Assembly: GCA_015492245.1 (NCBI GenBank) | Contig: WGFM01000017.1 | Span: 38,693-102,692, forward strand | Length of the DNA stretch: 64,000 nucleotides | Direction: 5' to 3' | Source of the DNA: Deltaproteobacteria bacterium | GTDB taxonomy: Bacteria > Desulfobacterota > GWC2-55-46 > DRQE01 | Shown here: positions 9,969 to 59,307 of the stretch, in pieces | Position numbering within the stretch: position 1 is the stretch's first letter | How the letters are laid out: the number at the start of each line of letters is the position of its first letter | Translations under genes and position numbers: made by a program | Notes under the pieces: model-generated | The model's input: only the letters and a program-made list of their open reading frames with translations | The model's database searches: none | Told to the model about the DNA's origin: nothing

Positions 9969-10007
9969 TCCTTTCCCTTTACACCAGAAAACACTTCTGT
10001 TATCTTT

Positions 10008-25080: not shown

Positions 25081-25158
25081 TGGCGTCCCCAGGGGGATTT
25101 GAACCCCCGTTACCGCCGTGAAAGGGCGGTGTCCTTGGCCAGGCTAGACGATGGGGAC
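25081..25158 (-). tRNA. tRNA-Glu (anticodon UUC), CCA encoded
   Basis: Reverse complement GTCCCCATCGTCTAGCCTGG…CCGCC-CTTTCAC-GGCGG…GGTTCAAATCC…GGGGACGCCA. Cloverleaf with anticodon loop CUUUCAC. Confidence 0.9.
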
Positions 25159-25173
25159 GCAGGTGAGAAAGAC

Positions 25174-25249
25174 TGGTGAGCCGCCCGGGACTCGAACCCG
25201 GGACCACCTGCTTAAAAGGCAGATGCTCTACCAACTGAGCTAGCGGCTC
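25174..25249 (-). tRNA. tRNA-Lys (anticodon UUU), CCA encoded
   Basis: Reverse complement GAGCCGCTAGCTCAGTTGGTAGAGCATCTGC-CTTTTAA-GCAGG…GGTTCGAGTCC…GGCTCACCA. Confidence 0.9.
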
Positions 25250-31776: not shown

Positions 31777-34477
31777 CAAGGAGGCTTGCAGAAAGGTCTT
31801 GGACAGGGTAAAGAGGGTTCTGCTTCTGACTATAACAGCTGTATTCCTTCTTGCCGGCCATACCGCCGAGGCAAAGGAGGTGGGCGTTGTTCTCATACCC
31901 TTCGATGTATACGCTGAAAAGGATATATCCCCACTGAGAAAGGAGATCATGGAAACGCTTGCAGAGAAACTAGAAAAGGAAGGGGTGAGGATAAGGGGTA
32001 TGGAGAGCATAAAGGAACTGTTCCTTGAAGGTGGGCTCAAAGAACTCACAGATAAACAGGCAATAGAGCTTGCCAGAGACGAGGGGGCAGGCTTTGTAAT
32101 AAGGGGAGCCATAACCCTTATAGGGGGAAGGTTCTCCCTGGATATGTTTGCCCTCGATACAACCGATGGCAGGTTCGTTGCGTTCTACCACAAAAAGGCC
32201 TCTTCCAGGGAGGCACTCATAGATGGTATCAAAAAGATCATACCAGAGCTTAAAGAAAGGCTTGAGCTCGCACTCCAGAAGATACCTGTGGAAAGAAGCG
32301 GTATGGTAACACGAATAGTGGTTGAGGGAAACAGACGAATAGATGCAGATGCCATACTCAAAAGGGTCTCCACAAGGGTGGGTGAGCCGTTCTCCACAGA
32401 CAGGGTAAAAGAGGATATACACTCCATATACGGTATGGGATACTTCGATGACATAATGGTGGATCTTTCCGACTACGAGGGTGGTAGGCAGATTACCTTC
32501 ATGGTCAGGGAAAAACCCCTCGTAAAGAAGATAGAGTTCAGGGGCAACAGGAACATAAAGGAAGAACGCCTGCGGGAGACCATAACCCTTAAGGAGAACA
32601 CCATACTCGACCGCATGCTCATAAAAGAAAATGTGCAGATAATAAAGGCCCTCTACAACCAGGAAGGCTACTACCTTGCAGATGTAAAAGAAGAGATTAC
32701 AGGAGACGGTGTGGGTGTAACCGTGGTGTTCAACATAACCGAGGGTGAGCAGGTAAAGGTCAAAAGGATTACCATAATAGGCAACAGTGTTCTAAGTGAT
32801 AGGAAGATAAAAAGGCTTATGAAGACGAAAGAAAAGGGGCTGTTCTCTTTCTTGACAGGCTCTGGCACATTCAATGAATATGTGTTCGAGGACGACCTTT
32901 CGGGTATAATAAGATATTACCTTGACCATGGATACATAAAGGCTGATATAACAGACTACAGGGTGCTCCTCAGCGAGGACAAAAGATGGTTCTACATCAC
33001 CATGGCCATAGACGAAGGGGTTCAATACAGGGTGGGAAAGATAGATGTCTCTGGAGACATAATATTCTCCAAGGAGGAGATACTCGAAAAATTCAGGCTC
33101 TCCACAGGCGATGTCTTCAGCAGGCGTCAGCTACACAAGACCATATCTGCCCTTACAACCCTTTATGGTGACAGGGGCTATGCAAATGCAGAGTTCAACC
33201 CTGTAACCCATATAGATGAGGAGAGAAAGACCATCGACATAACCATGAAGATTTCCATGAATGTGCCTGTGTATGTGGAAAGGATAGAGATAAGTGGCAA
33301 TATAAGAACCAGAGACAAGGTCATAAGAAGGGAACTCGAGTTCTCAGAGGGAGACCTCTACTCTGCCTCTGCCATGAGGATGAGCAGAAACAACCTGCGA
33401 AGACTCGGCTACTTCGAAGAGGTAAGGATTGAAAAGAGCGAGGGCAGCACACGCGACAGGGTAAGAATACATGTACGGGTAAAGGAAAGACCCACGGGCA
33501 TGATAACCTTCGGTATGGGATACAGCAGCGTGGACAAGGTCATAGTCATGGCATCGGTATCACAGGCGAATTTTATGGGCACAGGGATAAAGCTCAACCT
33601 CTCTGGCAATATAAGTGCAACGAGCAGCCGTTATATGATAAGCTTTACAGAACCATGGCTCTTTGATAAACCCTATATGGGTGGATTTGACCTCTACAAT
33701 ACATACAGAGATTATCCAGACTTTTCGATGGATAAGAACGGAGGGGTTCTGAGGTTCGGTTTCCCCATATACAAGAGGATAACCATGGGATACCTCACCT
33801 ACAGATACGAAAAGGTGGAGATTACAGATGTTGCCGAGACCACGAGTGCCCTCATAAAAGAACAGGAGGGCATCAGCACCGTAAGCAGCGTCAAGGCCCT
33901 TGTAAGGCACGACAGCCGTGATGACTTCTTCTTCCCCACAGAGGGAACGGTGGCAACGGCCTCTGTAGAGGTGGCAGGAGGTATTGTAGGAGGCAACACC
34001 AACTATGCAAAATACGAGGCAAGTGCAGGAAGATACTTCCCCATGCCAAAAGAGACCACCCTTATGACAAGGCTTACCCTGGGCTATGTGCACAGCTTCG
34101 GTGGAAAGAAGGTGCCTGTATACGAAAGATACTTCCTTGGTGGCATGAATACCATAAGAGGGTTCGATACCCGCAGCATCGGCCCCAAGGACCGCATCAC
34201 AGGAGAGGTCATTGGTGGGAAAAGCATGCTCATACTCAACACGGAGTATCTTTTCCCCTTATTTCCGGAGAACAACTTCATGGGGCTTGTCTTCTTTGAT
34301 GCAGGCAATGCCTATGAAGGGCCAATAGACCCTTCCACACTCAAGACCACTGCAGGAACTGGTATTAGGTGGTACTCTCCCATTGGCCCGCTGAGGCTTG
34401 AGTGGGGATACAACCTCAATAGAAAAGAGGACGAGAAACAATCAGCATGGGGCTTCACCATAGGAGGATTTTTCTAA
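31769..34477 (+). CDS. bamA: outer membrane protein assembly factor BamA with an extra N-terminal domain
   Basis: 902 aa. Signal peptide, about 150 aa of non-POTRA sequence, five POTRA-like repeats (from …RIVVEGNRRID…), and a C-terminal Omp85 barrel ending …GFTIGGFF. Confidence 0.9.
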   Translation: MHDKEACRKVLDRVKRVLLLTITAVFLLAGHTAEAKEVGVVLIPFDVYAEKDISPLRKEIMETLAEKLEKEGVRIRGMESIKELFLEGGLKELTDKQAIELARDEGAGFVIRGAITLIGGRFSLDMFALDTTDGRFVAFYHKKASSREALIDGIKKIIPELKERLELALQKIPVERSGMVTRIVVEGNRRIDADAILKRVSTRVGEPFSTDRVKEDIHSIYGMGYFDDIMVDLSDYEGGRQITFMVREKPLVKKIEFRGNRNIKEERLRETITLKENTILDRMLIKENVQIIKALYNQEGYYLADVKEEITGDGVGVTVVFNITEGEQVKVKRITIIGNSVLSDRKIKRLMKTKEKGLFSFLTGSGTFNEYVFEDDLSGIIRYYLDHGYIKADITDYRVLLSEDKRWFYITMAIDEGVQYRVGKIDVSGDIIFSKEEILEKFRLSTGDVFSRRQLHKTISALTTLYGDRGYANAEFNPVTHIDEERKTIDITMKISMNVPVYVERIEISGNIRTRDKVIRRELEFSEGDLYSASAMRMSRNNLRRLGYFEEVRIEKSEGSTRDRVRIHVRVKERPTGMITFGMGYSSVDKVIVMASVSQANFMGTGIKLNLSGNISATSSRYMISFTEPWLFDKPYMGGFDLYNTYRDYPDFSMDKNGGVLRFGFPIYKRITMGYLTYRYEKVEITDVAETTSALIKEQEGISTVSSVKALVRHDSRDDFFFPTEGTVATASVEVAGGIVGGNTNYAKYEASAGRYFPMPKETTLMTRLTLGYVHSFGGKKVPVYERYFLGGMNTIRGFDTRSIGPKDRITGEVIGGKSMLILNTEYLFPLFPENNFMGLVFFDAGNAYEGPIDPSTLKTTAGTGIRWYSPIGPLRLEWGYNLNRKEDEKQSAWGFTIGGFF

Positions 34478-34497
34478 AAAACAACAAGGAGAGGAAG

Positions 34498-35022
34498 ATG
34501 AAAAAGATAGCTTCTATAAGCGTGGTGTTCATCCTGCTGGGTTTTGTACACCTTGCAGCAGCAGAACTCAAGATAGGCTATGTAAACTTGCAGAGGGCAC
34601 TCAATGAGTGCGAGGCTGGCAGAAGGGCCAAGGCAGAGCTCAAGGAAGAGGCAAAAAAACTCGAAAAACAACTCACAGAAAAACAGGAGGAACTCAAGAA
34701 ACTCCGTGAAGAGATAGAGAAGAAACACGCCGTATGGAACGAGGAGACACGAAAGGCAAAGGAAAGGGACTATCAGACGAAGAGCCAGCACTTACAGCAG
34801 GAGTTCGTAAGGCTCAGCGAGGAGCTTAACAGAAAAAGAGGACAGAAGGAAGAGAAGATCATAAAGGAACTGCGCGCTCTCATAGACCAGGTGGCAGAGG
34901 AGAAGGGGTATACCTATGTGCTGGAGGCCTCCACGGGACTTGTCATCTACGGACCCGAAGAGGACGACATTACGGACCTGGTCATAAAACTATACAACGA
35001 GAAACTGAAAGAGAAGAAATAG
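34498..35022 (+). CDS. skp: periplasmic chaperone Skp/OmpH
   Basis: Signal peptide MKKIASISVVFILLGFVHLAAA followed by a long coiled-coil. Start placed at the internal ATG at 34498 after the bamA stop. Confidence 0.8.
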   Translation: MKKIASISVVFILLGFVHLAAAELKIGYVNLQRALNECEAGRRAKAELKEEAKKLEKQLTEKQEELKKLREEIEKKHAVWNEETRKAKERDYQTKSQHLQQEFVRLSEELNRKRGQKEEKIIKELRALIDQVAEEKGYTYVLEASTGLVIYGPEEDDITDLVIKLYNEKLKEKK

Positions 35023-35034
35023 AGAGAACACCCT

Positions 35035-36069
35035 GTGGCAGAAGGAAAGAGGCTTGAGGAACTGGCAGAACTTGTGGGTGGCACCCTGCGGGGCGACGGC
35101 TCTGTAGTGATAACAGGGGTCGCCTCTCTCGAAGAGGCCTGCAAGGGGGATATAACCTTTCTCTCCCACCCGCGCTACAAGAGGTTTCTGGCCACCACCA
35201 AGGCGTCTGCCGTGGTGGTCTCGCCTGAACTTGCAGACACCATGGCTGGTAGAAACCTCATTGTAGTCCAGAACCCCTACCTTGCCTTTGCAAGGATAAT
35301 GGCATCCATAGGGCCCACAAGGCACCCGTCCCCTGGAATCCATCCTTCAGCCTTTATAGACCCATCTGCCACCATCGGTGAGGATGTTTCCATACAGGCA
35401 GGGGTCTTCCTGTCGAGGGGCGCAACGGTGGGCAACAATGTGGTGCTCTACCCAGGGGTATATGTAGGTGAAGATGTGGAGATAGGGGCAGATACCATCA
35501 TACACTCCAATGTGTCCATACGCGAGGGGGTAAGAATAGGCCACAGGGTTATAATACACTGTAACAGCGTTATAGGGAGCGATGGGTTCGGCTACACACA
35601 GGTCGGCTCAAGGCATGTCAAGATACCACAGGTGGGCACAGTGGTGATAGCAGACGATGTTGAGATAGGCGCATGTGTAACCATAGACAGGGCAACCACA
35701 GGTGCCACCGTCATAGGCAGGGGCACAAAGATAGATAACCTGGTGCAGATAGGCCATAATGTAAAGATAGGTGAGGATACCATAATCGTGGCACAGAATG
35801 GCATAGCAGGCTCTGCAAAGGTGGGCAACAATGTAACCCTTGCCGGCCAGGTGGGGGTTACAGGGCATCTTGAAATAGCCGATGGTTGTGTTATAGGGGC
35901 AAAATCACTGGTTTCATCAAGCATAAGGACCAGGGGGGTCTACACGGGCTACCCTCTTGGAGAACACAAACGCTGGCTCAAGGCACAAACCCTTGTGCAG
36001 AAACTACCAGAGCTGAAGGAAAAGCTCAAAGAGCTTGAGGAAAGGCTGGAGAAGCTGGAGAAAAAATAA
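35035..36069 (+). CDS. lpxD: UDP-3-O-(3-hydroxyacyl)glucosamine N-acyltransferase
   Basis: 344 aa with left-handed beta-helix hexapeptide repeats and an LpxD N-terminal domain. Confidence 0.9.
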   Translation: MAEGKRLEELAELVGGTLRGDGSVVITGVASLEEACKGDITFLSHPRYKRFLATTKASAVVVSPELADTMAGRNLIVVQNPYLAFARIMASIGPTRHPSPGIHPSAFIDPSATIGEDVSIQAGVFLSRGATVGNNVVLYPGVYVGEDVEIGADTIIHSNVSIREGVRIGHRVIIHCNSVIGSDGFGYTQVGSRHVKIPQVGTVVIADDVEIGACVTIDRATTGATVIGRGTKIDNLVQIGHNVKIGEDTIIVAQNGIAGSAKVGNNVTLAGQVGVTGHLEIADGCVIGAKSLVSSSIRTRGVYTGYPLGEHKRWLKAQTLVQKLPELKEKLKELEERLEKLEKK

Positions 36070-36086
36070 AACCAAAGGAGGCAAGT

Positions 36087-36536
36087 ATGGTGGAAAGCAA
36101 TACTTCCTGCATAGAGATACAGGAAATCATGAAAATACTACCCCACCGCTATCCTTTTCTCCTCATAGACAGGATCGTTGAGCTTGAAAAGGGCAGGATG
36201 GCCAGAGGCATAAAGAATGTAACCATGAACGAGCCCTTCTTCCAGGGGCACTTTCCCTCACACCCAATAATGCCGGGAGTACTCATAATAGAGGCCATGG
36301 CACAGGTTGGAGGTGTGCTTGCCTTCAAATCTGCAGATATGTCCAACAGGCTCGTATACTTTATGGGTATAGATGGAGCAAGGTTCAGAAACCCTGTCCT
36401 TCCTGGCGACACCCTTGAAATCCTCTGTGAGGTAAAGAAGACACGGGGCACCATATGGACATTTACAAGTAATGCCCATGTTAATCAAAAGCGCGTTGCA
36501 GAGGCAGAACTGATGGCAACAATGGTGGAGAGGTGA
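36087..36536 (+). CDS. fabZ: 3-hydroxyacyl-[ACP] dehydratase
   Basis: 149 aa hot-dog fold with a catalytic HFP…PGVL region. Confidence 0.9.
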   Translation: MVESNTSCIEIQEIMKILPHRYPFLLIDRIVELEKGRMARGIKNVTMNEPFFQGHFPSHPIMPGVLIIEAMAQVGGVLAFKSADMSNRLVYFMGIDGARFRNPVLPGDTLEILCEVKKTRGTIWTFTSNAHVNQKRVAEAELMATMVER

Positions 36537-36543
36537 AAAGATT

Positions 36544-37365
36544 ATGAAGAAGACTTGTGAGGTAAGAATCCATCCAACAGCAATAGTGCATCCCACGGCA
36601 GAGCTTGATACAGGGGTCGAGGTGGGTGCCTATTCCATAATAGGAGAAAATGTGCGAATCGGCAAGGACACCTGGGTGGCCTCCCATGTGGTTATACACC
36701 ACAACACCACCATAGGAAGCCAGTGCAGGTTCTACCCCTTCTCATCGGTTGGCATGGACCCACAGGATATAAGCTACAGGGGAGAACCCACAGAGACCAT
36801 CATTGGAGACCGTAACATCGTAAGAGAGTTCGTTACCATCCACAAGGGCACCCCGAAGGACAGGGGCAGAACGGTGTGTGGAAAGGACAACCTCTTTATG
36901 AACTATGTCCACATAGCACATGACTGTGTCATTGGAGACCATGTTATAATGGCAAACGCAGCGACCCTTGCAGGACATGTCATAATAGAGGCCCATGCGA
37001 TAGTGGGTGGGCTCGTTGCGATACACCAGTATGTACGGATTGGTGCCTACTCCTTCATCGGTGGTGCATCTGCTGTAAGCAAAGACATACCCCCTTATGT
37101 TATGGCGGTGGGCAACAGGGCGCATCTGCACGGGCTCAACAGTGTGGGGCTGAGAAGGCAGGGCTTCAGCCGCCAGGACATTGCCGAGATAAGGAGGGCC
37201 TATGCAATCCTTTTCAAGTCCTCCATGCCCCTCAAGGAGGCAACAGAAAGACTCAAAGAGGAACTGCCCGACTCGACTCATGCAAAGAGATTTCTGGCCT
37301 TCATAGAGGGCTCAACGCGGGGGGTTGCAAAGGAAAGGATACACCACCACTCTACAGAAGATTAG
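36544..37365 (+). CDS. lpxA: acyl-[ACP]--UDP-N-acetylglucosamine O-acyltransferase
   Basis: 273 aa hexapeptide-repeat protein with the LpxA C-terminal helical domain. Confidence 0.9.
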   Translation: MKKTCEVRIHPTAIVHPTAELDTGVEVGAYSIIGENVRIGKDTWVASHVVIHHNTTIGSQCRFYPFSSVGMDPQDISYRGEPTETIIGDRNIVREFVTIHKGTPKDRGRTVCGKDNLFMNYVHIAHDCVIGDHVIMANAATLAGHVIIEAHAIVGGLVAIHQYVRIGAYSFIGGASAVSKDIPPYVMAVGNRAHLHGLNSVGLRRQGFSRQDIAEIRRAYAILFKSSMPLKEATERLKEELPDSTHAKRFLAFIEGSTRGVAKERIHHHSTED

Positions 37366-37392
37366 AAAAACAGGGCAAGGAAAACACAGACA

Positions 37393-38394
37393 ATGGCAAA
37401 GAAGATAAAGACAGCAGTCATAGGGGTGGGCCACTTCGGAAGGCTCCACGCCACAAAATTTAAAGAGCTCGATGGTGTAGAGCTCGTTGCCGTGGTGGAT
37501 GTGGACAGAGAGCGTGCCCGAGCAGTGGCAACAGAGCTTGGCACCACTGCGTACACAGACTACCATGAGCTCACAGACAGGGTGGATGCAGTAAGTATTG
37601 TAACACCAACGGCTACACACTACAGGATAGCAAGCCACTTTCTCTCCAGCGGTGTGGATGTGCTGATAGAAAAGCCCATGACAGCAAACCCAGAGGAGGC
37701 TGAAAAACTCATAAAGGAGGCTGAAAAACGAGGGGTTGTGCTTCAGGTGGGGCTCCTTGAAAGGTTCAATCCGGCTGTCAGGCTCATGCGTGAAAAGGTG
37801 AGCACACCACTCTTTATAGAGTCGCACAGGCTTGCGCCCTTTTCCACCAGGGCACTCGATACGGATGTGATATACGACCTTATGATACACGATATAGACA
37901 TGGTGTTGAGCCTTGTGGACTCGGATGTGGAGATGGTGGATGCCGTGGGTGTACCTGTAATATCCGGAAAGATAGACATAGCCAGTGCAAGGATAAGGTT
38001 TAAAACAGGGTGTGTGGCAAATATAACTGCGAGCAGGGTCTCGAGGGAGAAACAGCGCAGAATAAGGGTCTTCCAGCCCTGCACATATCTATCCATAGAC
38101 TATGACACCCAGCGTGCCACCATAATGCACCTGAAACAGAAAGAGGATAGCCGCCCCACACTTGAGAAGGAAAGCCCCAGGATAAGGAAGGGAGACCCCC
38201 TCATGGAAGAGATAAGGGCATTTGTGGATGCCTCTCGCAAAGGGCTGCCACCAGCGGTGCCAGGCACAGAGGGAAAGAGGGCGCTCGAGGTGGCAAAGAA
38301 GATAAAGGGCTCAATAAAGCTCTCCCTCGAGAAGGCGGGGCACCATCTCGAAGGTGTGCCAGACCTTTCACAGGTGATCACCAGTGCGGACTGA
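37393..38394 (+). CDS. Gfo/Idh/MocA family NAD(P)-dependent oxidoreductase embedded in the lipid A cluster (GnnA-like candidate)
   Basis: 333 aa with an N-terminal Rossmann motif (AVIGVGHFGRLH) and the EKP motif. Sits between lpxA and lpxB. Confidence 0.8.
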   Translation: MAKKIKTAVIGVGHFGRLHATKFKELDGVELVAVVDVDRERARAVATELGTTAYTDYHELTDRVDAVSIVTPTATHYRIASHFLSSGVDVLIEKPMTANPEEAEKLIKEAEKRGVVLQVGLLERFNPAVRLMREKVSTPLFIESHRLAPFSTRALDTDVIYDLMIHDIDMVLSLVDSDVEMVDAVGVPVISGKIDIASARIRFKTGCVANITASRVSREKQRRIRVFQPCTYLSIDYDTQRATIMHLKQKEDSRPTLEKESPRIRKGDPLMEEIRAFVDASRKGLPPAVPGTEGKRALEVAKKIKGSIKLSLEKAGHHLEGVPDLSQVITSAD

Positions 38395-38406
38395 ACCTTA
38401 AGGACT

Positions 38407-39552
38407 ATGACGAGAACCATCCTTATGATAAGCGCAGAGGCATCAGGAGACCTTCACGGAAGCTCGCTCATAAAGGAAATCAAGAAGATAGACCCCTCTG
38501 TAAGGATAAAGGGCATGGGCGGCCAAAAGATGCTTCAGGCAGGGCTCGAGGGTATAGACTCCTCACAGCTTGCAGTGGTGGGGCTACAGGAGGTGGCAGA
38601 AAAACTCAGAGACATAGTAGGGGCATACAGAAGACTGAAGCGCCTTCTTTACGAAGAAAGATTCCACTGTGTTGTGCTCATAGACTATCCCGAGTTCAAC
38701 CTGAGGTTCGCAAGGCTTGCAAAAAAAAGAGGAGTGCCTGTAGTATATTACATAAGCCCACAGGTATGGGCATGGAGAAGGGGCAGGACAAGAAAGATTG
38801 CCAGGGTGGTGGACAAGATGCTCGTGGTCTTTCCCTTCGAAGAGACCATCTACAGGGAGGCCGGTGTGGATGTGGAGTATGTGGGGCATCCGCTGGCCGA
38901 GAAGGCGACCCTCAATGTCTCGAAGGAAGAGGCAAGGGAATCCCTCTCTCTTGAAAGAGAGGGTGTGGTGGTCTCGGTTCTTGCAGGAAGCAGAACCGAT
39001 GAGGTGAAAAGGCTTCTTGCCCCCATGCTCAAAGGGGTAAGGCTGTTTAAACAAAGGGTGCAGAAAGATGTGGCCATCCTGATACCTGTGGCAGATACAA
39101 TACAGGATGAACTCATAAAAGAAGAACTCGGGGCAACAGGCACCACAGCAAGGATTGTGAGGGGAAGACTCTACGAGGCCCTGAGGGCATCGGACATTGC
39201 CGTTGTTACCTCGGGTACCGCCACCCTTGAGACCGCCCTTATCGGAACCCCCATGGTAATCGTATACAGGGTCTCGCCACTTTCTTATCTTGTTGGAAGG
39301 TTCCTTGTGGGGGTAAAATATATAGGGCTGCCCAACATAGTGGCAGAAGAAGGGGTGGTGCCAGAGCTCATACAGGAGGATGTAACCCCTGAAAAGATCG
39401 CAGCCCATATGTCGCACCTGTTCACCGATGAGAAGGCAAGAGCCGGTATAACCGCTCGCTTCAAGGAAATAAGAAGGGTTCTTCTGAAAGACGGCTCTGC
39501 CCCCAGAAGGGCTGCACAGATAATATACCGGATAGCCTGTAAGGGAGACTGA
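38407..39552 (+). CDS. lpxB: lipid-A-disaccharide synthase
   Basis: 381 aa. N-terminus …MISAEASGDLHGS… is typical of the LpxB GT-B fold. Confidence 0.9.
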   Translation: MTRTILMISAEASGDLHGSSLIKEIKKIDPSVRIKGMGGQKMLQAGLEGIDSSQLAVVGLQEVAEKLRDIVGAYRRLKRLLYEERFHCVVLIDYPEFNLRFARLAKKRGVPVVYYISPQVWAWRRGRTRKIARVVDKMLVVFPFEETIYREAGVDVEYVGHPLAEKATLNVSKEEARESLSLEREGVVVSVLAGSRTDEVKRLLAPMLKGVRLFKQRVQKDVAILIPVADTIQDELIKEELGATGTTARIVRGRLYEALRASDIAVVTSGTATLETALIGTPMVIVYRVSPLSYLVGRFLVGVKYIGLPNIVAEEGVVPELIQEDVTPEKIAAHMSHLFTDEKARAGITARFKEIRRVLLKDGSAPRRAAQIIYRIACKGD

Positions 39553-39556
39553 CCCT

Positions 39557-41317
39557 ATGGCCCTTTATCTGAGACTTCTAATATTCCTGCGCCCCTACTG
39601 GTTAAGGCTGACGCTGGCCGTGGCGTGCATGATAATCTTCGCCATATCCAATGGCCTGATGGCATACCTCATAGGGCCTGCCATAAAACTCCTTTTCGAC
39701 AAGGAGAAGATACCTGCCCAATACGGCCTGCCCGATATAACGATATTCTCTGCACAGAACATGCAGGTTCTTCTTCCTCTTGCCATAATCGTGGTGGCCA
39801 TTGTAAGGGGTGTAAGTTCTTACGGCAATACCTACTACATGGGATATGTGGGGCAGCGTGTCATAGCAGACTTAAGGAAGGCCCTTTATGCCCACATACT
39901 GGAGCTTCCATACGAGTTCTTCGTAAGAAACCCTGCAGGTGGGCTGACATCAAGGCTCACAAACGATATAAACCTCCTTGAGAAGGCAACGGCAGACACC
40001 CTGATACACGCCTTCAAGCAGGGGCTATCGGTGGTGGTGCTCGCTGTAATAATACTCATGATGGACTGGCAGCTTGCACTAATAGGAGGCATTGCCTTCC
40101 CCCTTGCCATATATCCTGCCATGAGGTTCGGCAGGAAGATAAAGAACATCTCCCGCAAGGGACAGGTAACCCTTGGTGATATGGCATCTGTAATACACGA
40201 GGCATTGAAGGGTATAAGGGTTGTAAAGGGTTTCGGCATGAAGGAATACGAGACCAGAAAGTTCAGCCAGGAGAACGAACGGTTTGCCCGCTACAGGACA
40301 CGGGCGATAAAGATAAGGGGAATATCGAGCCCCTTTATGGAGACCTTTGCGGCCACAAGTTTCGCCCTCACCATATGGTATGCAAGCTACAGAATATGGC
40401 AGGGCACACTCACCCCCGAGGCATTCATAACATTCTTTGCGGCCATAGTCATGCTTTATCAGCCTGTGAGGGTACTTAACGGCGTATACCTGAACCTCCA
40501 GCAGGGCCTCGGCTCTGCCCAGAGGATATTCGAGATACTCGATACCCCCACAGAGGCCATAAAAGACGGCACAAGGATATGCACCGGTATCATAGATGGT
40601 ATAGAGTTCATAGATGTATCCTTCAGTTATGGGGAGAAAGAGGTGCTCAGGGGCATAAACCTCAAGGTAAAGAAAGGCGAACGGGTTGCCATAGTGGGCT
40701 CAAGCGGGGTGGGCAAATCCACTCTTGTAAACCTTGTCCCAAGGTTTTATGATGTTACAGGTGGGGCCATACTCATAGATGGTGTGGACATACGGGAGTT
40801 CACCCTTGCCTCGCTTCGCAGCCAGATAAGTATAATATCCCAGGATGTGATACTCTTTAACGACACGGTGAGAAACAACATAGCCTATGGCAGACCCGAG
40901 GTGAGCGAGGAAGAGGTAATAAGGGCAGCGCTTTCAGCCAATGCACACCAGTTTATAGAGGAACTGCCACAGGGATACGACACCGTGATAGGTGAAGGTG
41001 GCATAAGGCTTTCAGGAGGCCAGCGCCAGCGCCTTTCCATCGCACGGGCCATACTGAAAGATGCGCCCATGCTTATAATGGACGAGGCGACATCCTCGCT
41101 CGATGCAGAGTCTGAAAGGGCGGTTCGGGAGGGGCTTAGAAACCTCATGGAGGGCCGCACCACCTTCGTAATAGCCCACAGGTTCTCCACCATAAAAGAC
41201 GCCACCAGGATAGTGGTGCTCTCTGGTGGAACCATAGTGGAAGCGGGCAGCCACGAAGAACTCATAGAGAAGAGTGGGGAGTACAGAAGGCTCTATTCCA
41301 TACAGTTTCAGGGATAG
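39557..41317 (+). CDS. msbA: lipid A export ABC transporter permease/ATP-binding protein
   Basis: 586 aa. Six-TM exporter domain and an NBD with Walker A GSSGVGKST and signature LSGGQRQR. Confidence 0.85.
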   Translation: MALYLRLLIFLRPYWLRLTLAVACMIIFAISNGLMAYLIGPAIKLLFDKEKIPAQYGLPDITIFSAQNMQVLLPLAIIVVAIVRGVSSYGNTYYMGYVGQRVIADLRKALYAHILELPYEFFVRNPAGGLTSRLTNDINLLEKATADTLIHAFKQGLSVVVLAVIILMMDWQLALIGGIAFPLAIYPAMRFGRKIKNISRKGQVTLGDMASVIHEALKGIRVVKGFGMKEYETRKFSQENERFARYRTRAIKIRGISSPFMETFAATSFALTIWYASYRIWQGTLTPEAFITFFAAIVMLYQPVRVLNGVYLNLQQGLGSAQRIFEILDTPTEAIKDGTRICTGIIDGIEFIDVSFSYGEKEVLRGINLKVKKGERVAIVGSSGVGKSTLVNLVPRFYDVTGGAILIDGVDIREFTLASLRSQISIISQDVILFNDTVRNNIAYGRPEVSEEEVIRAALSANAHQFIEELPQGYDTVIGEGGIRLSGGQRQRLSIARAILKDAPMLIMDEATSSLDAESERAVREGLRNLMEGRTTFVIAHRFSTIKDATRIVVLSGGTIVEAGSHEELIEKSGEYRRLYSIQFQG

Positions 41318-41326
41318 GTAAGGTTT

Positions 41327-41976
41327 ATGCTCGAAGAACTTAAACTTAGGATTGTTACAACCCTCGGGGCATGGTTCATAAGGCTGTTGCGCCTTACGAT
41401 ACGCATAGAGTATGTGGACTTCGATCTCTACAGGGAGAGGCTTGCCTCTGGCAGGCAGAGCATCGTGGCGTTCTGGCACGGAAGGCTTCTGATGATGCCC
41501 TATGCCTCATACCGTGAGGGGATGACCGTGCTCGTAAGCCTCCACAGAGATGGAGAGCTCATTGCCCGTACGATAGGACACTTCGGTATCAGGGCGGTGA
41601 GGGGCTCTACCTCGAGGGGAAGCCTTGGCGGCCTAAAGGGGCTTCTTAAGGCCATAAAAGATGGCAGAGACATTGCCATAACACCTGATGGCCCCCGGGG
41701 GCCTCTCTTCAGGGCCCAGCGCGGCATAATAGACATAGCAAAAAAGACAGGGCTGCCCATAATACCACTTGCATTCAGTGCCAGTAAAAAAAAACACTTA
41801 AGAGCTGGGACCGCTTCATAATACCCTATCCCTTCTCAAGGGGTGTCTTCATATGTGGCAGACCTATTACAGTACCTGGCACTGCCACAGAGGAAGAGCT
41901 TGAAGAGAAAAGAGAGGAGCTCGAGAAAACACTCATGGAGATTACACACAGGGCAGACAGATACTTCGACAGATGA
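41327..41976 (+). CDS. DUF374 (lysophospholipid-acyltransferase-like, kdtA-associated) protein interrupted by a -1 frameshift in an A9 tract
   Basis: Frame 1 (41327..41821) carries the DUF374 core incl. ITPDGPRGP. After the A9 run (41786-41794) the conserved C-terminus (…SWDRFIIPYPFSRGVF…) continues in the -1 frame to a stop at 41974-76, overlapping the kdtA ATG. An A10 tract would restore a 216-aa protein. Confidence 0.65.
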
Positions 41977-43301
41977 TATATATCCTCTACGATATAATCC
42001 TCCATATCAGTGTCATGGTGCTTCTGCCCTATTTTATGTTCAAGATGCTTTCAGAGGGAAAGTATCGCACAGGCATACCAGAAAGGTTTGGCATCTACAG
42101 AGACGAAAAGCTACGCGCCCTCCAGGGTGGTGATGTGGTGTGGTTCCACGCCGTAAGCGTGGGAGAGACGAAGGCGGTGCTTCCGCTCCTGAAACTCTTC
42201 AAGGAGAGGTATCCAGAAAAGAAGGTGGTCTTCTCTACCATCACATACACGGCCAACAGGGTGGCAAAGAACGAAGAGCCCCTGCTCATAGATGCCCTCC
42301 TATACTTTCCCTTAGACCTTTCATGGGTAGTCAAGAGGGCTGTTGCAAGGCTCAGGCCATCGCTCTTCGTGGTGGTGGAAAAGGAGGTGTGGCCAAATAT
42401 CATACATACCCTGCACGAAAATGGGGTGCCCATAGTGGTGGTAAACGGCACTGTTTCAGAAAGGTCCTTTGGAAGGTATAGAAAACTCGGCTTTTTCTTC
42501 ACCGGCATATTCTCAAGCATAACCCGCTTCTGCGCACGCACCGAGGATGATAGGGTGCGTGCCGTGGCACTTGGTGTGCCAGCCCAGAGGGCTGTGGCCA
42601 CAGGTAACCTCAAGTTCGATATAGAGGATGTGGAGCTGAAAGAGGCTGACAGGGAAACCCTCAGAGAAGAGCTTGGCATAGGACAGGATGACCCCGTGGT
42701 AGTGGCAGGAAGCACCCATGCAGGTGAAGAAGAGGCACTCATCGGTGTCTTCAAAAGGCTCAAAGAGGGGTTTCCAGCACTTAGGCTCATACTCGCCCCA
42801 AGACACCCGGAAAGGTTCGATGAGGTGGCTGCCCTCTTGAAGGCCTCGGGACTGAACTTTAAAAGAAGGACGAACAAAGAAAGGGCCGGTGAGAGGACGG
42901 ATGTGGTGCTCCTCGATACCATAGGGGAGCTTACAGCCCTCTACGGCCTTTCCACGGTGGCGTTCGTTGGCGGAAGTCTTGTGGAAGGGGTGGGCGGACA
43001 CAACCTTCTTGAGCCTGCCGTATTCTCAAAGCCTGTTGTATACGGAGGGCATCTCAAGGGCTACCTCTATATGGCAGAACTTCTCGAGAAAGAAGGCGGT
43101 GGCATAAGGGTTACAGACAGAGAGGGCCTCTTTTCTGCCCTCTCATCCCTCCTGGCCGACAGAGGACTCTGCAAAGAGGCCGGAATGGCAGCCCGCAGGG
43201 TGGTCGATAAAAACCGTGGTGCCACAGAGAAGACCATGAGCCTTATAGAAGAGGTGATACAGGAGCACTCCCTCTTGAGAGACGAAAGAAGAGATGCATA
43301 A
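41973..43301 (+). CDS. kdtA: 3-deoxy-D-manno-octulosonic acid (Kdo) transferase
   Basis: 442 aa. N-terminal membrane anchor, …VWFHAVSVGE… motif, GT-B C-terminal domain. Confidence 0.9.
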   Translation: MIYILYDIILHISVMVLLPYFMFKMLSEGKYRTGIPERFGIYRDEKLRALQGGDVVWFHAVSVGETKAVLPLLKLFKERYPEKKVVFSTITYTANRVAKNEEPLLIDALLYFPLDLSWVVKRAVARLRPSLFVVVEKEVWPNIIHTLHENGVPIVVVNGTVSERSFGRYRKLGFFFTGIFSSITRFCARTEDDRVRAVALGVPAQRAVATGNLKFDIEDVELKEADRETLREELGIGQDDPVVVAGSTHAGEEEALIGVFKRLKEGFPALRLILAPRHPERFDEVAALLKASGLNFKRRTNKERAGERTDVVLLDTIGELTALYGLSTVAFVGGSLVEGVGGHNLLEPAVFSKPVVYGGHLKGYLYMAELLEKEGGGIRVTDREGLFSALSSLLADRGLCKEAGMAARRVVDKNRGATEKTMSLIEEVIQEHSLLRDERRDA

Positions 43302-44358
43302 CCTTCCCCATCCATACAGGTTGGTCCTTTGGCCCTTGTCCGCCCTCTATGGGGCCATCGTAAGGTTCCGTAACCTTCTCTACCTCAAGGGTGTACTTAA
43401 AAGCACAAGGCCCTCTGGTGTAAGGATTATCTCTGTGGGCAACCTGACCGTTGGAGGAACTGGCAAGACCCCTGTAACCATCCATCTTGCAGCCTGTCTT
43501 AAAGATAGGGGCATGAGGGTTGCCATACTCAGCCGTGGCTACAGAAGGACCACCAGGGGTGCAAGGGTGGTCTCTGATGGAGAAAGGCTCCTTATGAGTC
43601 CTCAGGAGGCAGGCGATGAGCCCTGTCTTATGGCACAAAGACTCAGGGGGGTGCACCTTGTGGTATCGGAGAAGAGAACAGCAGGTGCAGAGCTTCTTAA
43701 AGAGAGGTTCGGGCCAGATGTGATACTCCTCGACGATGGGTTCCAACATCTTGCCATAAAGAGGGACCTCGATATTGTGCTCATAGATGGCAGGCAGCTC
43801 TCCGAAAATCCCCGGGTTCTTCCCTCCGGCCCCCTGCGCGAACCCCCTGACTCGCTCAAGAGGGCAGACATCATACTCTTTAAAGACCACACACACCTAC
43901 CCCGCCCCTTCGCACCCTACATTGAAGGTAAACCCCGATGGGGCTTTTCCTACAGGGCTGGCAGATTGCTCGATGAAGGGTTCAGACCCCTTGGCGGTGC
44001 AGGACTCTTGAAGGATAGAAGGGTTGTGGCGGTCTGTGGTATAGCAGAGCCCGACTCCTTCTTTACCACCCTCGAGGGCTGTGGCGCCAGGGTGGTGGAA
44101 AGGGTTGGCCTTCCAGACCACCACCTCTACACCGAAGCAGATGTGGCAACACTTGTGGATAGAGTCGAAAAAACCGGGGCAGAGTGGGTCCTGACCACAG
44201 AGAAGGACGGGGTCAAGCTTAAGGATTGCAAGGGAGTAGAGGCTCTACCCCTCAGGATACTCACCATAGATGTGGCGATAGAGGAAGAAAAACCCTTTGT
44301 CTCAAAGGTGCTCGAGCTTTCTGGTATTGAAACTGCTGGCAGTTGTGATAAAATATAG
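43294..44358 (+). CDS. lpxK: tetraacyldisaccharide 4'-kinase
   Basis: 354 aa with P-loop GNLTVGGTGKTP, typical of LpxK. Confidence 0.85.
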   Translation: MHNLPHPYRLVLWPLSALYGAIVRFRNLLYLKGVLKSTRPSGVRIISVGNLTVGGTGKTPVTIHLAACLKDRGMRVAILSRGYRRTTRGARVVSDGERLLMSPQEAGDEPCLMAQRLRGVHLVVSEKRTAGAELLKERFGPDVILLDDGFQHLAIKRDLDIVLIDGRQLSENPRVLPSGPLREPPDSLKRADIILFKDHTHLPRPFAPYIEGKPRWGFSYRAGRLLDEGFRPLGGAGLLKDRRVVAVCGIAEPDSFFTTLEGCGARVVERVGLPDHHLYTEADVATLVDRVEKTGAEWVLTTEKDGVKLKDCKGVEALPLRILTIDVAIEEEKPFVSKVLELSGIETAGSCDKI

Positions 44359-44374
44359 ATAGAAGGAACGAGTT

Positions 44375-44565
44375 AGGGGCGTTGCACGAACCAACGTGTG
44401 TGTGCGTAAGTCCCATCCGCAGGGTGCGTACAAACCACCTAAGGAGGCCCTACGGCGAGGAAGGAGGCAAGCCATCCAGTCCATAATAAGGAGTGGATGG
44501 GGAGGCCTTTCGAGCTGAGAGCCGGCGGATTGGATGAAAGAGGTTCGGTGCAACGCCTCTTTTTG
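44375..44565 (+). ncRNA. candidate structured ncRNA of unknown class (closed by a 13-18 bp terminal helix, ends in a U-tract)
   Basis: AGGGGCGTTGCACGAACC (44375-92) pairs with GGTTCGGTGCAACGCCTCT (44543-60), followed by TTTTT. Internal stems include CCATCCAGTCC-ATAATAA-GGAGTGGATGG and CCGCAGGG…CCCTACGG. No credible ORF. Class not recognised. Confidence 0.3.
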
Positions 44566-44579
44566 GTCTTCTTTCTGGA

Positions 44580-44676
44580 GGAAGGGGAAAGGGCCCGGTG
44601 GCCCTGCGGGTCTTCAAAACCCGTCGGTCCCTCTAAGAAAGGGGCTGGAGGGTTCGACTCCCTCCTCCTTCCGCCA
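44580..44676 (+). tRNA. selC: tRNA-Sec (selC), anticodon UCA, CCA encoded
   Basis: 97 nt. 8-bp acceptor (GGAAGGGG/CTCCTTCC), 6-bp D-stem with a 4-nt loop, anticodon loop CUUCAAA, long variable arm, 5-bp T-stem (GAGGG-TTCGACT-CCCTC), discriminator G. 3' half is near-identical to E. coli selC. Confidence 0.88.
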
Positions 44677-44891
44677 AAGCCTGCGTAACATCAACATGTC
44701 CTCCCCTGAAAAGAGACTCCCCACCGGCTTGTCATAAAAGGCTGGCTGGTCAACCTGTTCCTGCCTTATCAGGTATATGCCCCGTGTCTTTTCTGTTTAG
44801 ATTTTACACTGTCTGGAAAGAAAAAAATTGACATGCCTACAGGCTGTGCGATAACATTTCAAATACTGTCTTTAGCGGAGGCCAGTGGTAA

Positions 44892-45866
44892 ATGCAGATA
44901 CAGGAGGTGCTCGCCCTCATAAAAGAGGACATGCGCAGGGTGGAAGAGGAGTTCAGGAAAAACCTTCTTTCCGATGTCTATCTCATAAGAAGGGTTGGTG
45001 AATACATACTCAACAGCGGCGGAAAAAGGTTCAGACCCCTTATGGTGCTTCTTGCCAGCAGGCTCTGTGGTTACCATGGAGGGCTACACATACCACTTGC
45101 AGTGGTGGTTGAGTTCATCCACACGGCCACCCTTCTGCATGACGATGTGGTGGACAACGCAACACTGCGCCGTGGCAGCCCATCGGCAAACGCCATATGG
45201 GGCAACGGCTCCAGTGTGCTCGTGGGGGACTACCTTCTTTCAAAGGCCTTCTCCATAACGGTGGCGCAGGGAAACATCAGGGTGCTCGACATACTGTCCA
45301 ACACCACCACTCGCATGGCCGAAGGCGAGGTGCTCCAGCTTATTAAACACTCCGATGTGAACGCAACAGAGGATGAATACCTCCATGTAATAACCGGTAA
45401 AACAGCGGTCCTCTTTTCAGCCTGCTGCAGGATACCGGCGGTGCTGGCAAACCTTCCCACAGAAAAGGAGGAGGCCCTTGCAACCTATGGCATGTCCATA
45501 GGTATCGCATACCAGCTGATGGACGACTGTCTGGACTACACCTCGAAGTCAGAAGACCTCGGCAAGACCATAGGAAATGACCTCAGGGAGGGCAAGGTTA
45601 CCCTGCCACTCATAAAGACCTACAGGGATGCAACGGAAAAGGAAAGAGTAACAATAAGAGAAGCAGTGGAGGCAGAAAGTGTAGACGAGAAGACCCTCAA
45701 CGAGGTGCTCGTCATAATAAAAAAGTATGGTGGAATAGAGTATACACTGGACTTTGCAAAGGGTTACATAAACAGGGCAAAGAGCTGCCTTGAGCACTTC
45801 GAGCCCGATACAGAACGGGCTGCGCTCGCTGCGGTTGCAGACTATGTGATAGAGAGAACCAACTGA
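44892..45866 (+). CDS. polyprenyl diphosphate synthase (IspB/octaprenyl-heptaprenyl type)
   Basis: 324 aa with first DDxxD (LLHDDVVDN) and second DDxxD (MDDCLD) motifs. Confidence 0.85.
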   Translation: MQIQEVLALIKEDMRRVEEEFRKNLLSDVYLIRRVGEYILNSGGKRFRPLMVLLASRLCGYHGGLHIPLAVVVEFIHTATLLHDDVVDNATLRRGSPSANAIWGNGSSVLVGDYLLSKAFSITVAQGNIRVLDILSNTTTRMAEGEVLQLIKHSDVNATEDEYLHVITGKTAVLFSACCRIPAVLANLPTEKEEALATYGMSIGIAYQLMDDCLDYTSKSEDLGKTIGNDLREGKVTLPLIKTYRDATEKERVTIREAVEAESVDEKTLNEVLVIIKKYGGIEYTLDFAKGYINRAKSCLEHFEPDTERAALAAVADYVIERTN

Positions 45867-46525: not shown

Positions 46526-47293
46526 ATGGGTCTTCTTGAAGGTAAAAAGGCTCTTATCTTTGGTGTTGCAAACGAGAGAAGCATCGCCTGGGCCATCGCA
46601 AAGGCACTCCATACAGAAGGTGCACAGTGTGCCTTCACCTATGCAACCGAAAGGCTTAAAGAAAGGGTGGAAAGGCTTGCCCACTCACAGGGCTCCGATA
46701 TTGTGCTGCCCTGTGATGTTACAAAGGACGAGGAGGTGGAGGCCACATTCTCCACAATAAAGGAGAGGTGGCAGAGCCTGGACATACTGATACACTCTGT
46801 GGCATTTGCGAAGAAGGAAGAACTCAAGGGGAAACTGCTTGACACAACACGAGAGGGCTTCGGCCTTGCCATGGATGTAAGTGTCTATTCCCTCATAGCC
46901 CTTACCAGGCAGGCCTCCCCCCTCATGCGAGAGGATGGAAGCATAATGACCCTTACATACCTTGGAAGCCAGAAGGTTGTGCCAAACTACAATGTCATGG
47001 GGGTGGCGAAGGCAGGGCTTGAGGCAGCGGTAAGATACCTTGCAGAGGATATGGGCCCCCAGGGTGTGAGGGTGAATGCCATATCCGCAGGGCCTGTCAA
47101 GACCCTTGCAGCCATGGGTATATCAGGGTTTGGCGAGATACTCAAGAGGGTCGAGGAGAAGGCCCCCCTGAGGCGCAACATATCGCAGGAAGATGTAGCA
47201 GGTGTGGCACTCTTTCTTGCAAGCCCGCTTTCAACAGGTGTTACAGGGGAGATAATCTATGTGGATGCGGGCTACAACATAATGGGGCCTTGA
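46526..47293 (+). CDS. fabI: enoyl-[ACP] reductase (NADH)
   Basis: 255 aa SDR with GVANERSIAWAIA and the Y-x6-K catalytic dyad region typical of FabI. Confidence 0.9.
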   Translation: MGLLEGKKALIFGVANERSIAWAIAKALHTEGAQCAFTYATERLKERVERLAHSQGSDIVLPCDVTKDEEVEATFSTIKERWQSLDILIHSVAFAKKEELKGKLLDTTREGFGLAMDVSVYSLIALTRQASPLMREDGSIMTLTYLGSQKVVPNYNVMGVAKAGLEAAVRYLAEDMGPQGVRVNAISAGPVKTLAAMGISGFGEILKRVEEKAPLRRNISQEDVAGVALFLASPLSTGVTGEIIYVDAGYNIMGP

Positions 47294-48543
47294 GCATGCG
47301 CATAATAGCAGACCTCCACATACACAGCCGTTATTCCCGTGCAACCAGCAAAGAGATGACACTGCCCACAATAGCCCGCTGGGCAAGGAGAAAGGGCATA
47401 AACCTTGTCGGCACAGGAGACTTCACCCACCCACAGTACCTGAAGTCCATAGAGGAAGGGCTTGTGCCAGCCGAAGATGGGCTCTTCATGCTCGAAGATG
47501 AACCCACGGTACGCTTCATGCTCACAGTAGAGGTGAGCAACATCTACAGCCAGGCAGGTAGCCTCCGCAAGATCCACACCCTCCTTTTTGCCCCATCCCT
47601 TAAGGCTGCAAAGGAGCTCACAGAGAGGCTCAAGGCCATGGGCAATGTGTATGCCGATGGAAGGCCTGTGTTCGGTTTTCCGGCGGTAGAGCTACTCAAG
47701 ATGGCACTTGACATATCAGAGGATTTTCTTGTCGTTCCAGCCCATGCATGGACACCCTGGTTCTCCATATTCGGCAGCAAATCGGGGTTCGACTCCATAG
47801 AAGAGTGCTTCGGCGATTACTCCAAATACATCTACGCCATAGAGACAGGGCTATCGAGCAACCCTGAGATGAACTGGCGGCTTTCGGCCCTCGATGGGGT
47901 AGCCCTTCTTTCGAACTCCGATGCCCACTCACCGGCAAAACTGGGCAGGGAGGCCAATGTGTTCGAGTGTGAGTCGAGTTATCCTGCCATAATGGATACC
48001 ATAAAGAGCAAAGACCCTGAGAGGTTTCTTTTCACCATAGAGTTCTTCCCCGAAGAGGGGAAATACCACTACGATGGACACAGGGAATGCGGGGTGGTCC
48101 TCTCACCAGAGGAGACGAGAAAGGCCCGTGGGCTGTGCCCTGTCTGTGGCAGGGAGGTTACAGTTGGGGTTATGAACAGGGTGGAAGAGCTTGCCGACAG
48201 ACCCCCGGGCTTTGTGCCAGAAGGTGCCATACCACAGCGCTCGCTCATACCACTTGAGGAAATCGTAGCAGAAGCACTGGCAAGAGGGGTCAACACGGCA
48301 GCCGTGAAGAAGGAATACCGCCGTATGACCGATGCTTACGATGAGTTCACCATACTTATGGACCTTACAGAGGAGGAACTGCAGAAAATAGCCCATCCCA
48401 TGGTGGCAGAAGGTATTGGCAGGGTGCGCCGCGCCCAGGTGCATATAAGCCCTGGTTTCGACGGCGAGTTCGGCAAGATAAAGCTCTTCGAAGAACCACA
48501 AAGACCAGAAACAAAGGGGCCCACACAGATGGGGCTGTTCTGA
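47290..48543 (+). CDS. PHP-domain protein of the TIGR00375 family / endonuclease Q-like
   Basis: 417 aa. N-terminal PHP motif ADLHIHSRYSRA…GTGDFTHP and a Cys-rich Zn-ribbon-like segment (HRECG…CPVCGREV). Architecture resembles archaeal/Bacillus EndoQ, but this is assigned from memory. Confidence 0.45.
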   Translation: MSMRIIADLHIHSRYSRATSKEMTLPTIARWARRKGINLVGTGDFTHPQYLKSIEEGLVPAEDGLFMLEDEPTVRFMLTVEVSNIYSQAGSLRKIHTLLFAPSLKAAKELTERLKAMGNVYADGRPVFGFPAVELLKMALDISEDFLVVPAHAWTPWFSIFGSKSGFDSIEECFGDYSKYIYAIETGLSSNPEMNWRLSALDGVALLSNSDAHSPAKLGREANVFECESSYPAIMDTIKSKDPERFLFTIEFFPEEGKYHYDGHRECGVVLSPEETRKARGLCPVCGREVTVGVMNRVEELADRPPGFVPEGAIPQRSLIPLEEIVAEALARGVNTAAVKKEYRRMTDAYDEFTILMDLTEEELQKIAHPMVAEGIGRVRRAQVHISPGFDGEFGKIKLFEEPQRPETKGPTQMGLF

Positions 48544-59230: not shown

Positions 59231-59235
59231 ATAAG

Positions 59236-59307
<72 letters not shown>

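Follow-up and report, generated by a model that had tools for sequence, protein, structure and literature searches.

What kind of element separates lpxK from selC, the gene for the selenocysteine transfer RNA (tRNA-Sec), in a 64,000-nucleotide (nt) stretch of contig WGFM01000017.1 from a Deltaproteobacteria bacterium (assembly GCA_015492245.1; the whole stretch is hereafter called the window)? An initial annotation had pointed to some 190 nt with paired ends and a terminal T-run at this place, and had offered a 6S-like RNA, a novel small RNA (sRNA) or a leader of selC as readings. We find upstream of selC a gene for an RNA of roughly 205 nt (~44361–44564), which we call X. It belongs to a gene family with a common structure, is independent of 6S RNA and occurs also in lineages without an adjacent selC. 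Taking all evidence together, we consider it about an even call that X is an undescribed, stand-alone stable structured RNA with a function in trans, for which the binding of a protein is the probable mechanism.

A family of structured RNA genes

A covariance model built from six close sequences (R1) found a distant copy of X in locus L084 (loci are numbered with the prefix L). From the R1 set and this copy we derived the core pattern ATCCGCNGNGTGCGTANNAACCAC and searched it in metagenomes, where it retrieved nine contigs, all of them true homologues at 34–141 bits, with L091 cut by its contig end. A core-only covariance model (R2) then added the diverged copy of L098. The first metagenome pattern (TAAGTCCN{4,10}CAGGGTGCGNNCAAACC) had given no matches, some of its positions being peculiar to the window clade, and viral contigs did not match the core pattern. 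The searches yielded 14 further loci with 12 distinct sequences; with the window, the family comprises 15 sequences from nine lineages.

All carriers are uncultivated metagenome-assembled genomes or metagenomes (Deltaproteobacteria/Thermodesulfobacteriota), and the nearest named relatives of the window LysRS are likewise labelled Deltaproteobacteria or Thermodesulfobacteriota. R2 detected no X in L095–L097 or in a further 78 lpxK loci of Desulfuromonadales, Nitrospinota, Nitrospirota, Acidobacteriota and other groups, and a covariance-model search found it as a single copy in the window. The family is known from a narrow distribution. The order lpxK–RNA–selC is kept throughout the window clade, whose other members (L001, L002, L081, L082 and L083) were located by way of LpxK and in which X including its promoter is 90–93% identical, compared with 56–85% for LpxK, while neither the spacer between X and the tRNA gene nor the region past selC is conserved. 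The LpxK proteins of X-bearing loci are mutual best relatives at 43–53% identity, and at about 45–50% LpxK identity a core of about 45 nt remains almost invariant.

The fold of X is far more stable than expected from its composition. A 201-nt stretch has a minimum free energy (MFE) of −91.9 kcal/mol, against −66.7 ± 4.8 kcal/mol for 200 dinucleotide shuffles (z = −5.29; 0 of 200 as low), and the L098 homologue gives z = −5.5. The architecture consists of two stacked three-way junctions, P1–P2–P3 and P3–P4–P5, and is reached by each member folded alone except L093, whose MFE structure keeps P1 only. P1, a closing helix of 16–20 base pairs (bp), is near-perfect in all members. In the window (all on the + strand), the MFE structure pairs its 5′ strand AGGGGCGTTGCACGAACC (44375–44392) with GGTTCGGTGCAACGCCTCT (44542–44560), a pairing also backed by pair counts, and TTTTT follows directly (44560–44564); helix and T-run lie where the initial annotation had placed them. 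Above P1, the MFE prediction has the 4-bp hairpin P2 (ACGU-GUGUGU-GCGU, 44394–44407), followed by P3, in which CCCAUCCGC (44412–44420) pairs with the nearly invariant GCGGAUUGG (44525–44533). P3 leads into the nearly invariant hairpin P4 with its bulged C (GGGUG-C-GU-ACAA-AC-CACCU, 44422–44440), the junction J4/5 (AAGGA, 44441–44445; family consensus AARG), which is conserved as unpaired in the alignments, and the variable apical arm P5 (44446–44523). The A-rich junction J3/1 (AUGAAAGA, 44534–44541; family consensus WRRAAAG) closes the circle back to P1; its AAAG is kept in 12 of 13 aligned core sequences.

Across the family, the almost invariant core of P3, P4 and the adjoining junction reads CCAUCCGC-A-GGGUGCGUAYAAACCACCU-AARG ... 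GCGGAUUGG-A-rich, with consensus P3 formed by CCAUCCGC and GCGGAUUGG, and consensus P4 by GGGUG-C-GU-AYAA-AC-CACCU. The P5 arm, by comparison, ranges from about 35 to about 130 nt, so that the whole of X measures 157–250 nt, with 157 nt in L086 and 161 nt in L089. Of the two inner hairpins that had been read by eye, CCATCCAGTCC-ATAATAA-GGAGTGGATGG is present as the apical hairpin of P5 (44473–44501). The other, CCGCAGGG/CCCTACGG, is not a conserved fold: its complementarity is 7 of 8 in the window clade and 4–6 of 8 in other lineages, and its bases belong to P3, P4 and P5 in the comparative structure.

Pair statistics were computed on 14 sequences aligned to the core model, with 500 shuffles and slid-partner pairings as controls. 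Paired cells made up 93.1% of the alignment, against 86.6% in shuffles, and 16 of 43 pairs carried two-sided changes. Shuffles gave 9.3 ± 1.7 such pairs, none of the 500 reaching 16, and slid partners gave 2–7. The 16 pairs fell in P1 (12 of 18), in the basal pairs of P5 (3 of 6) and in P4 (1 of 7). Compensatory changes thus support P1, P4 and P5, and conservation of the paired ends in relatives, named by the initial annotation as one test of its reading, is borne out by P1. In P4, 99% of cells are paired; the counted event is a G-C to A-U double change in L084, and a different pair shows a second compensatory change in L098 (GGAUG/CAUCU). The P3 5′ strand is invariant in 13 of the 14 aligned sequences, with 96% of cells paired; because P3 is invariant, its covariation speaks neither for nor against it. 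Apparent compensatory changes of P3 in L098, suggested by a local covariance-model alignment, proved to be an artefact, the true P3 3′ strand being the distal GCGGAUUGG. The P2 region aligns too poorly for formal pair counts; its site holds other 4-bp hairpins in L084 (GUCC/GGAC), L086 (GGGU/ACCC) and L098 (AAGC/GCUU). The X model scores 242.6 bits on the + strand and 16.7 bits on the − strand. This asymmetry, together with the G-U pairs, indicates that the functional form is + strand RNA rather than a DNA element.

A sigma-70-type promoter for X was predicted inside the 3′ end of lpxK (44327–44354; 10 of 12 consensus positions with TG), composed of a −35 element TTGAAA (44327–44332), a 16-nt spacer and an extended −10 element TGaTAAAAT (44346–44354). 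The −10 sits at a constant distance from X in all homologues, and its TG is missing from L086/L090 (TTGATATAAT) only; most homologues show a clear −35, but that of L093, L094, L086/L090 and L098 is weak. A leader of the AGRGRRA type starts exactly 6 nt past the −10 in every lineage but L086/L090, which have the A-rich GAAAGAC. Because the leader is fixed relative to the −10, we infer that transcription starts at A 44361, the seventh nt past the −10, with the purine-rich, single-stranded leader AGAAGGAACGAGUU (44361–44374) preceding P1. At the other end, a run of 5–8 U follows P1 in every homologue, interrupted in L093 and L098. The T-run of the window reads as terminator-like; a hairpin-plus-T scanner did not call P1 and the U-tract a terminator, the 'loop' being about 150 nt. 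A consensus scan found no promoter-like site between 44355 and 44827. Judged by these signals, X appears to be an independently promoted RNA gene.

The purine leader (44361–44374) can also pair, weakly in the window, with the pyrimidine-rich trailer (44565–44579). The same pairing lengthens P1 by about 15 bp in L098 (8600–8615 with 8833–8850) and by 7 bp in L093 (4699–4712 with ~4895–4915). It may represent a processing stem, one that is not universal in the family.

Gene neighbourhood and the link to selC

In the window, X lies directly after lpxK (ending at 44358, +; Pfam LpxK, E = 9e-96) and is separated from selC by a 15-nt spacer (44565–44579) in which the promoter scan was empty and whose sequence is not conserved within the clade. 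The identity of selC, recognized by eye in the initial annotation, was upheld by ARAGORN, which called tRNA-SeC (tca) at 44580–44676 (+), and by Rfam (RF01852, 71.9 bits against a threshold of 47). The gene has the UCA anticodon, a long variable arm, an 8-bp acceptor stem and a 5-bp T stem, and its GCCA end, including CCA, is encoded.

The gene before X is lpxK in the window clade, L093 and L094, and an lpxK–lpxL pair precedes it in L084, L086/L090, L092 and L098. X follows hisD in L087/L088, and in L089/L091 neither a lipid A gene nor hisD precedes it. Downstream, selC follows on the same strand in five of the nine lineages, at distances of 15 nt (window clade), 44 nt (L094), 65 nt (L092), 140 nt (L093) and 280 nt (L098). 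No promoter-like site was found in the X–selC spacers of the first four; in L098, a hairpin terminator and a TTGAAC-N16-TAGAAT promoter lie between X and selC. The remaining four lineages (L084, L086/L090, L087/L088 and L089/L091) lack an adjacent selC, and convergent genes follow X there, in L084 and L086/L090 a PEGA-domain gene directly. None of the 38 X-less lpxK loci covered by a tRNA scan (L003–L040) had selC nearby.

These arrangements divide the suggestion that the element is a leader for selC into two parts. The physical link stands, in five of nine lineages. As the purpose of X it does not: four lineages have no selC, L098 sets X and selC apart by a terminator and a promoter for selC, and the sequences do not support a dedicated leader made for selC. 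In the four lineages with a promoterless selC, the tRNA gene is probably co-transcribed with X by read-through and freed by RNase P.

Directly after selC, L098 carries T5orf172/MUG113 and phage-lysozyme genes (9122–10160), which suggests a mobile element integrated at selC; in enterobacteria, selC is known as an integration site of mobile elements.

Further features of the window surround this locus. A cluster of outer-membrane and lipid A genes on the + strand (bamA-ompH-lpxD-fabZ-lpxA-GFO family-lpxB-msbA-DUF374-kdtA-lpxK, 31769–44358) leads into the X gene; its last four genes were identified by Pfam in the window, and the others were read from gene calls in L081, an 85% relative. The 150 nt from selC to the next promoter-like site (TTGACA-18-TAACAT, 44828–44857, +) are not conserved; the site itself, kept in L081 and L082, stands ahead of a polyprenyl synthetase gene (44892–45866). 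A 417-amino-acid ORF (47290–48543, +) had no Pfam match in our scan, and its L081 orthologue has a precomputed match to PF27218 (MJ0043_C). The presence of selC led us to look at selenoprotein genes in the window: none of selA, selB, selD or TGA-interrupted genes appeared among the 46 of 62 candidate ORFs scanned with Pfam, and a molybdopterin oxidoreductase (16081–18087, −; domains Fe4S4, Molybdopterin and Molydop_binding) has no in-frame TGA. Other tRNA genes are a tRNA-Lys(ttt)/tRNA-Glu(ttc) pair (25081–25249, −) and tRNA-Thr(cgt) (59235–59307, −).

X compared with 6S RNA and other known classes

A 6S-like identity, one of the original suggestions, was not sustained. The 6S model (RF00013) gave nothing at E ≤ 10 with X, either in the window (44250–44800) or with the 157-nt L086 homologue. 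The fold is branched, with two three-way junctions in place of the 6S rod of closing stem, central bubble and terminal stem. Moreover, four lineages have a separate conserved RNA gene between lpxL and X, with a TTGACA-17-TATCAT promoter: L086 (2612–2785, +), L084 (~2275–2455, +), L098 (~7965–8135, +) and L092 (~1410–1580, −). The Rfam 6S model aligns with the whole of the L086 gene at 34.9 bits (E = 8e-6), below the gathering threshold of 46.4, and the gene carries the typical GGUGUGCAAGCC ... GGAAGCCUGAA motif. These neighbours look like the 6S RNAs of their lineages, missed at the curated threshold. We also considered that X might derive from the neighbouring 6S gene; an nhmmer profile of X scored the four 6S-like sequences no better than 500 dinucleotide shuffles. 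The whole-window Rfam scan (E ≤ 0.5) contained no 6S match, so the 6S gene of this genome must lie elsewhere, and none was seen among 20 X-less lpxK loci scanned with Rfam. Spacers near the 6S-like gene (L084 2456–2760, L086 2244–2600 and L098 8140–8590) hold further hairpin-plus-T terminators and short conserved stretches, among them TCGTCATTG...CTCCTTGCATCT in L086 and L098.

Other classes fared no better. Rfam 15 gave no family at E ≤ 10 for 44360–44570, nor did the whole-window scan at its own cut-off, which agrees with the initial annotation in finding none of the classes it could recognize; the Rfam search that it proposed thus leaves the element unexplained. ARAGORN called no transfer-messenger RNA (tmRNA), signal recognition particle (SRP) RNA and tmRNA had no Rfam match, and the apical part of X, which would hold SRP domain IV, is its most variable region. 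A minimal RNase P RNA had seemed conceivable from AAGUCC...GCAGGGUGC, which resembles CR-I after a P3-like hairpin, and was rejected with no RNase P match at E ≤ 10; the AAGUCC of the window is not conserved, homologues having AAGCCC, AAGACC, AAGAUC, GAUACC or AAAACC. A cis-acting leader should always stand 5′ of the gene that it controls, and X is followed by convergent genes in L084, L086/L090, L087/L088 and L089. We saw no conserved alternative pairing to P1 in the alignments that could serve as an expression platform.

Several smaller readings were also set aside. ORFs across X are not conserved in start, frame or length among homologues, which argues against a small protein gene. A candidate Shine-Dalgarno mimic in J4/5–P5 (UAAGGAGG) is replaced by UAAUCGGG, UAAAGUGG or CAAAGAGG in homologues. 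CCUAAG/AUUGG was tried as an 11-nt tetraloop receptor, and dropped since the motif varies among homologues and its CC takes part in P4 covariation. For a seed-type (Hfq-dependent) base-pairing sRNA the observations point both ways: a U tail is present, most of the conserved bases are found in helices and junctions, and the analysis identified no target.

A limited full-text literature search found no description of X. On the basis of Rfam 15 and this limited, non-exhaustive text search, we rate X as a new RNA class. The suggestion of a novel sRNA has held up in this sense, that of a predicted independently promoted RNA with a covariation-supported fold and no Rfam match.

Possible function and closest known systems

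If X is a stand-alone RNA, a strong sigma-70-type promoter of its own, located within the end of lpxK, would drive its transcription, and P1 with the U-tract would most likely have two roles, those of a somewhat leaky intrinsic terminator and of a clamp protecting the ends of a stable RNA. The two stacked three-way junctions would carry the function, with the apical arm as a freely variable spacer. An invariant junction core beside a free-running arm suggests a specific three-dimensional site that acts in trans. The most likely partner of X would be a conserved protein, which X would either join in a ribonucleoprotein or sequester; a base-pairing sRNA or a cis-acting leader is hard to square with the pattern of invariance. 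In the lineage of the window, tRNA-Sec would most likely arise from read-through of the X terminator and be cut out by RNase P, a cleavage that would also define where the X precursor ends on its 3′ side. For a low-abundance tRNA, a position behind a terminator could be a simple means of holding its level low.

Several points weigh against a stand-alone, protein-binding RNA. The transcript ends, abundance, terminator read-through, RNase P processing and protein binding of X are all deduced from sequence, and no candidate protein partner was identified. An invariant core with a variable periphery fits a ribozyme or ligand-binding RNA equally well. P3 is invariant and so lacks covariation support. 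Canonical intrinsic terminators do not consist of a 16–20-bp helix around about 150 nt, and the scanner passed this one over. L094 and L092 have U-tracts of 7–8 nt, yet selC follows in both with no visible promoter, which implies substantial read-through or weak promoters that were missed. No genes other than lipid A genes and selC recur beside X, and the recurrence beside selC in five of nine lineages may be a functional tie that we treat as passive.

Such a tie would make X part of the selenocysteine system, either as a cis attenuator or leader of selC, with P1 and the U-tract as a conditional terminator, or as a trans helper of tRNA-Sec maturation, charging or delivery. The same-strand selC directly downstream in the window clade, L092, L093, L094 and L098 speaks for it, as do the promoterless spacers in four of these five and the 38 X-less lpxK loci of the tRNA scan, whose lack of selC marks the unit as X–selC rather than lpxK–selC. 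We nevertheless regard it as unlikely. Four lineages keep the X core, promoter and U-tract with no selC in their flanks, and L098 separates the genes by a terminator and a second promoter. With 16–20 bp, P1 is far too stable for a ligand switch, and a conserved anti-terminator pairing is absent from the alignments. An 11-bp complementarity between the X core and the D/anticodon stem of tRNA-Sec (AUCCGCAGGGU with GCCCUGCGGGU) shows a single mismatch in L092 and is gone from L098; it stands at about chance level, as chance alone would give about 0.3 8-mer matches of this kind. We consider a ribozyme or ligand-binding RNA, with the junction core as active site or binding pocket, unlikely to the same degree. 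It would account for the invariant junction nt, the invariant bulged C, the A-rich strand, the length-variable arm and the closure by P1. Against it stand the lack of a consistent downstream gene to regulate and of any match among the riboswitch and ribozyme families of Rfam 15; X also occurs once in the window and its core is not in viral contigs, unlike most small self-cleaving ribozymes, and a chemistry is not inferable from sequence alone.

The position of X directly after lpxK or lpxL in seven of nine lineages, with convergent PEGA-domain and porin genes adjoining it in three, raises the question of a base-pairing envelope sRNA that targets lipid A, outer-membrane protein or porin mRNAs through a conserved single-stranded segment. 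Many enterobacterial envelope sRNAs have their own promoter and a U-rich 3′ end, and X shares both. We think this improbable: the conserved part is mostly helical (P3 and P4) or in junctions and exposes no seed, 157–250 nt with a double three-way junction is unusual for seed-type sRNAs, and the analysis identified no complementary targets. Descent within a single clade can account for the synteny, which is broken in L087/L088 (after hisD) and L089. It is very improbable, in our estimate, that X represents a second 6S-type RNA, strongly diverged, which would bind RNA polymerase holoenzyme, perhaps with an alternative sigma factor, and would have arisen by tandem duplication of the neighbouring 6S gene. 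In four lineages X does adjoin a 6S-like gene; the closing helix of X is long, its P1–P3 junction has 20–24 nt on the 5′ side (including P2) and 8–10 A-rich nt on the 3′ side, and it shows short resemblances by eye (UCCGC(U)AGGG and CCACCU). RF00013 missed X, though, while detecting its neighbour, the strongest conservation lies in a three-way junction and not in stems that flank a bubble, and the profile comparison stayed at shuffle level.

A further idea, which we hold to be quite improbable, is that X is a housekeeping-type RNA, ribonucleoprotein or catalytic, whose core works on or with tRNA-Sec in its maturation, in Ser-to-Sec conversion or in the control of its level. This would explain why an X–selC unit has been kept in five deep Thermodesulfobacteriota-like lineages.

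The interest of X, taken as a stand-alone RNA, lies in its signature of about 45 almost invariant core nt, a freely variable arm and protected ends. To our knowledge, bacteria have very few independently transcribed, intricately folded RNA classes with a core conserved nearly as well as ribosomal RNA (rRNA), and each new class of this kind that we know of has revealed a new ribonucleoprotein, ribozyme or sensor. Here the 6S-like gene, X and tRNA-Sec form a small cluster of stable-RNA genes in uncultivated, sulfate-reducer-like bacteria of vents, sediments and groundwater. A protein or ligand bound by X, if there is one, would mean a new RNA-based function, and a tie to tRNA-Sec, if true, would give the bacterial selenocysteine system its first dedicated RNA partner. 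With the covariance model and the 24-nt core pattern, X can be sought directly in other genomes, and at 157 nt the L086 version is of a size suited to probing and structural work.

Among known systems, terminating riboswitch leaders resemble X in having a P1-closed domain and a U-tract upstream of a same-strand gene, an arrangement that X shows in some lineages. They differ in that the 16–20-bp P1 is the only 'terminator stem' of X, with no alternative pairing, and the downstream gene is a tRNA gene or absent. In the rRNA operons of E. coli, spacer and distal tRNAs are embedded and released by RNase P. The X–selC pair is similar in that a promoterless tRNA lies directly 3′ of a stable RNA with a long helix, and processing would separate the two; here, however, the upstream RNA is not rRNA, a terminator-like U-tract lies between and the arrangement is not family-wide.

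6S RNA (SsrS, RF00013), like X, is a stand-alone stable RNA, comparable in size at about 180 nt, with its own strong sigma-70-type promoter, its ends paired in a long closing helix and an asymmetric unpaired region above. X departs from it in the missing match to the 6S model, in two three-way junctions instead of a rod and in the invariance of its junction core. Comparative genomics has also yielded orphan structured RNAs such as raiA, OLE and other motif classes from the Breaker laboratory. Like X, these are defined only through conservation and covariation, fold with several junctions around an invariant core, lack a consistent downstream gene and are restricted to particular lineages. X matches none of their Rfam 15 families and is smaller (157–250 nt), and the association with lipid A genes, a 6S-like gene and selC is unique to X.

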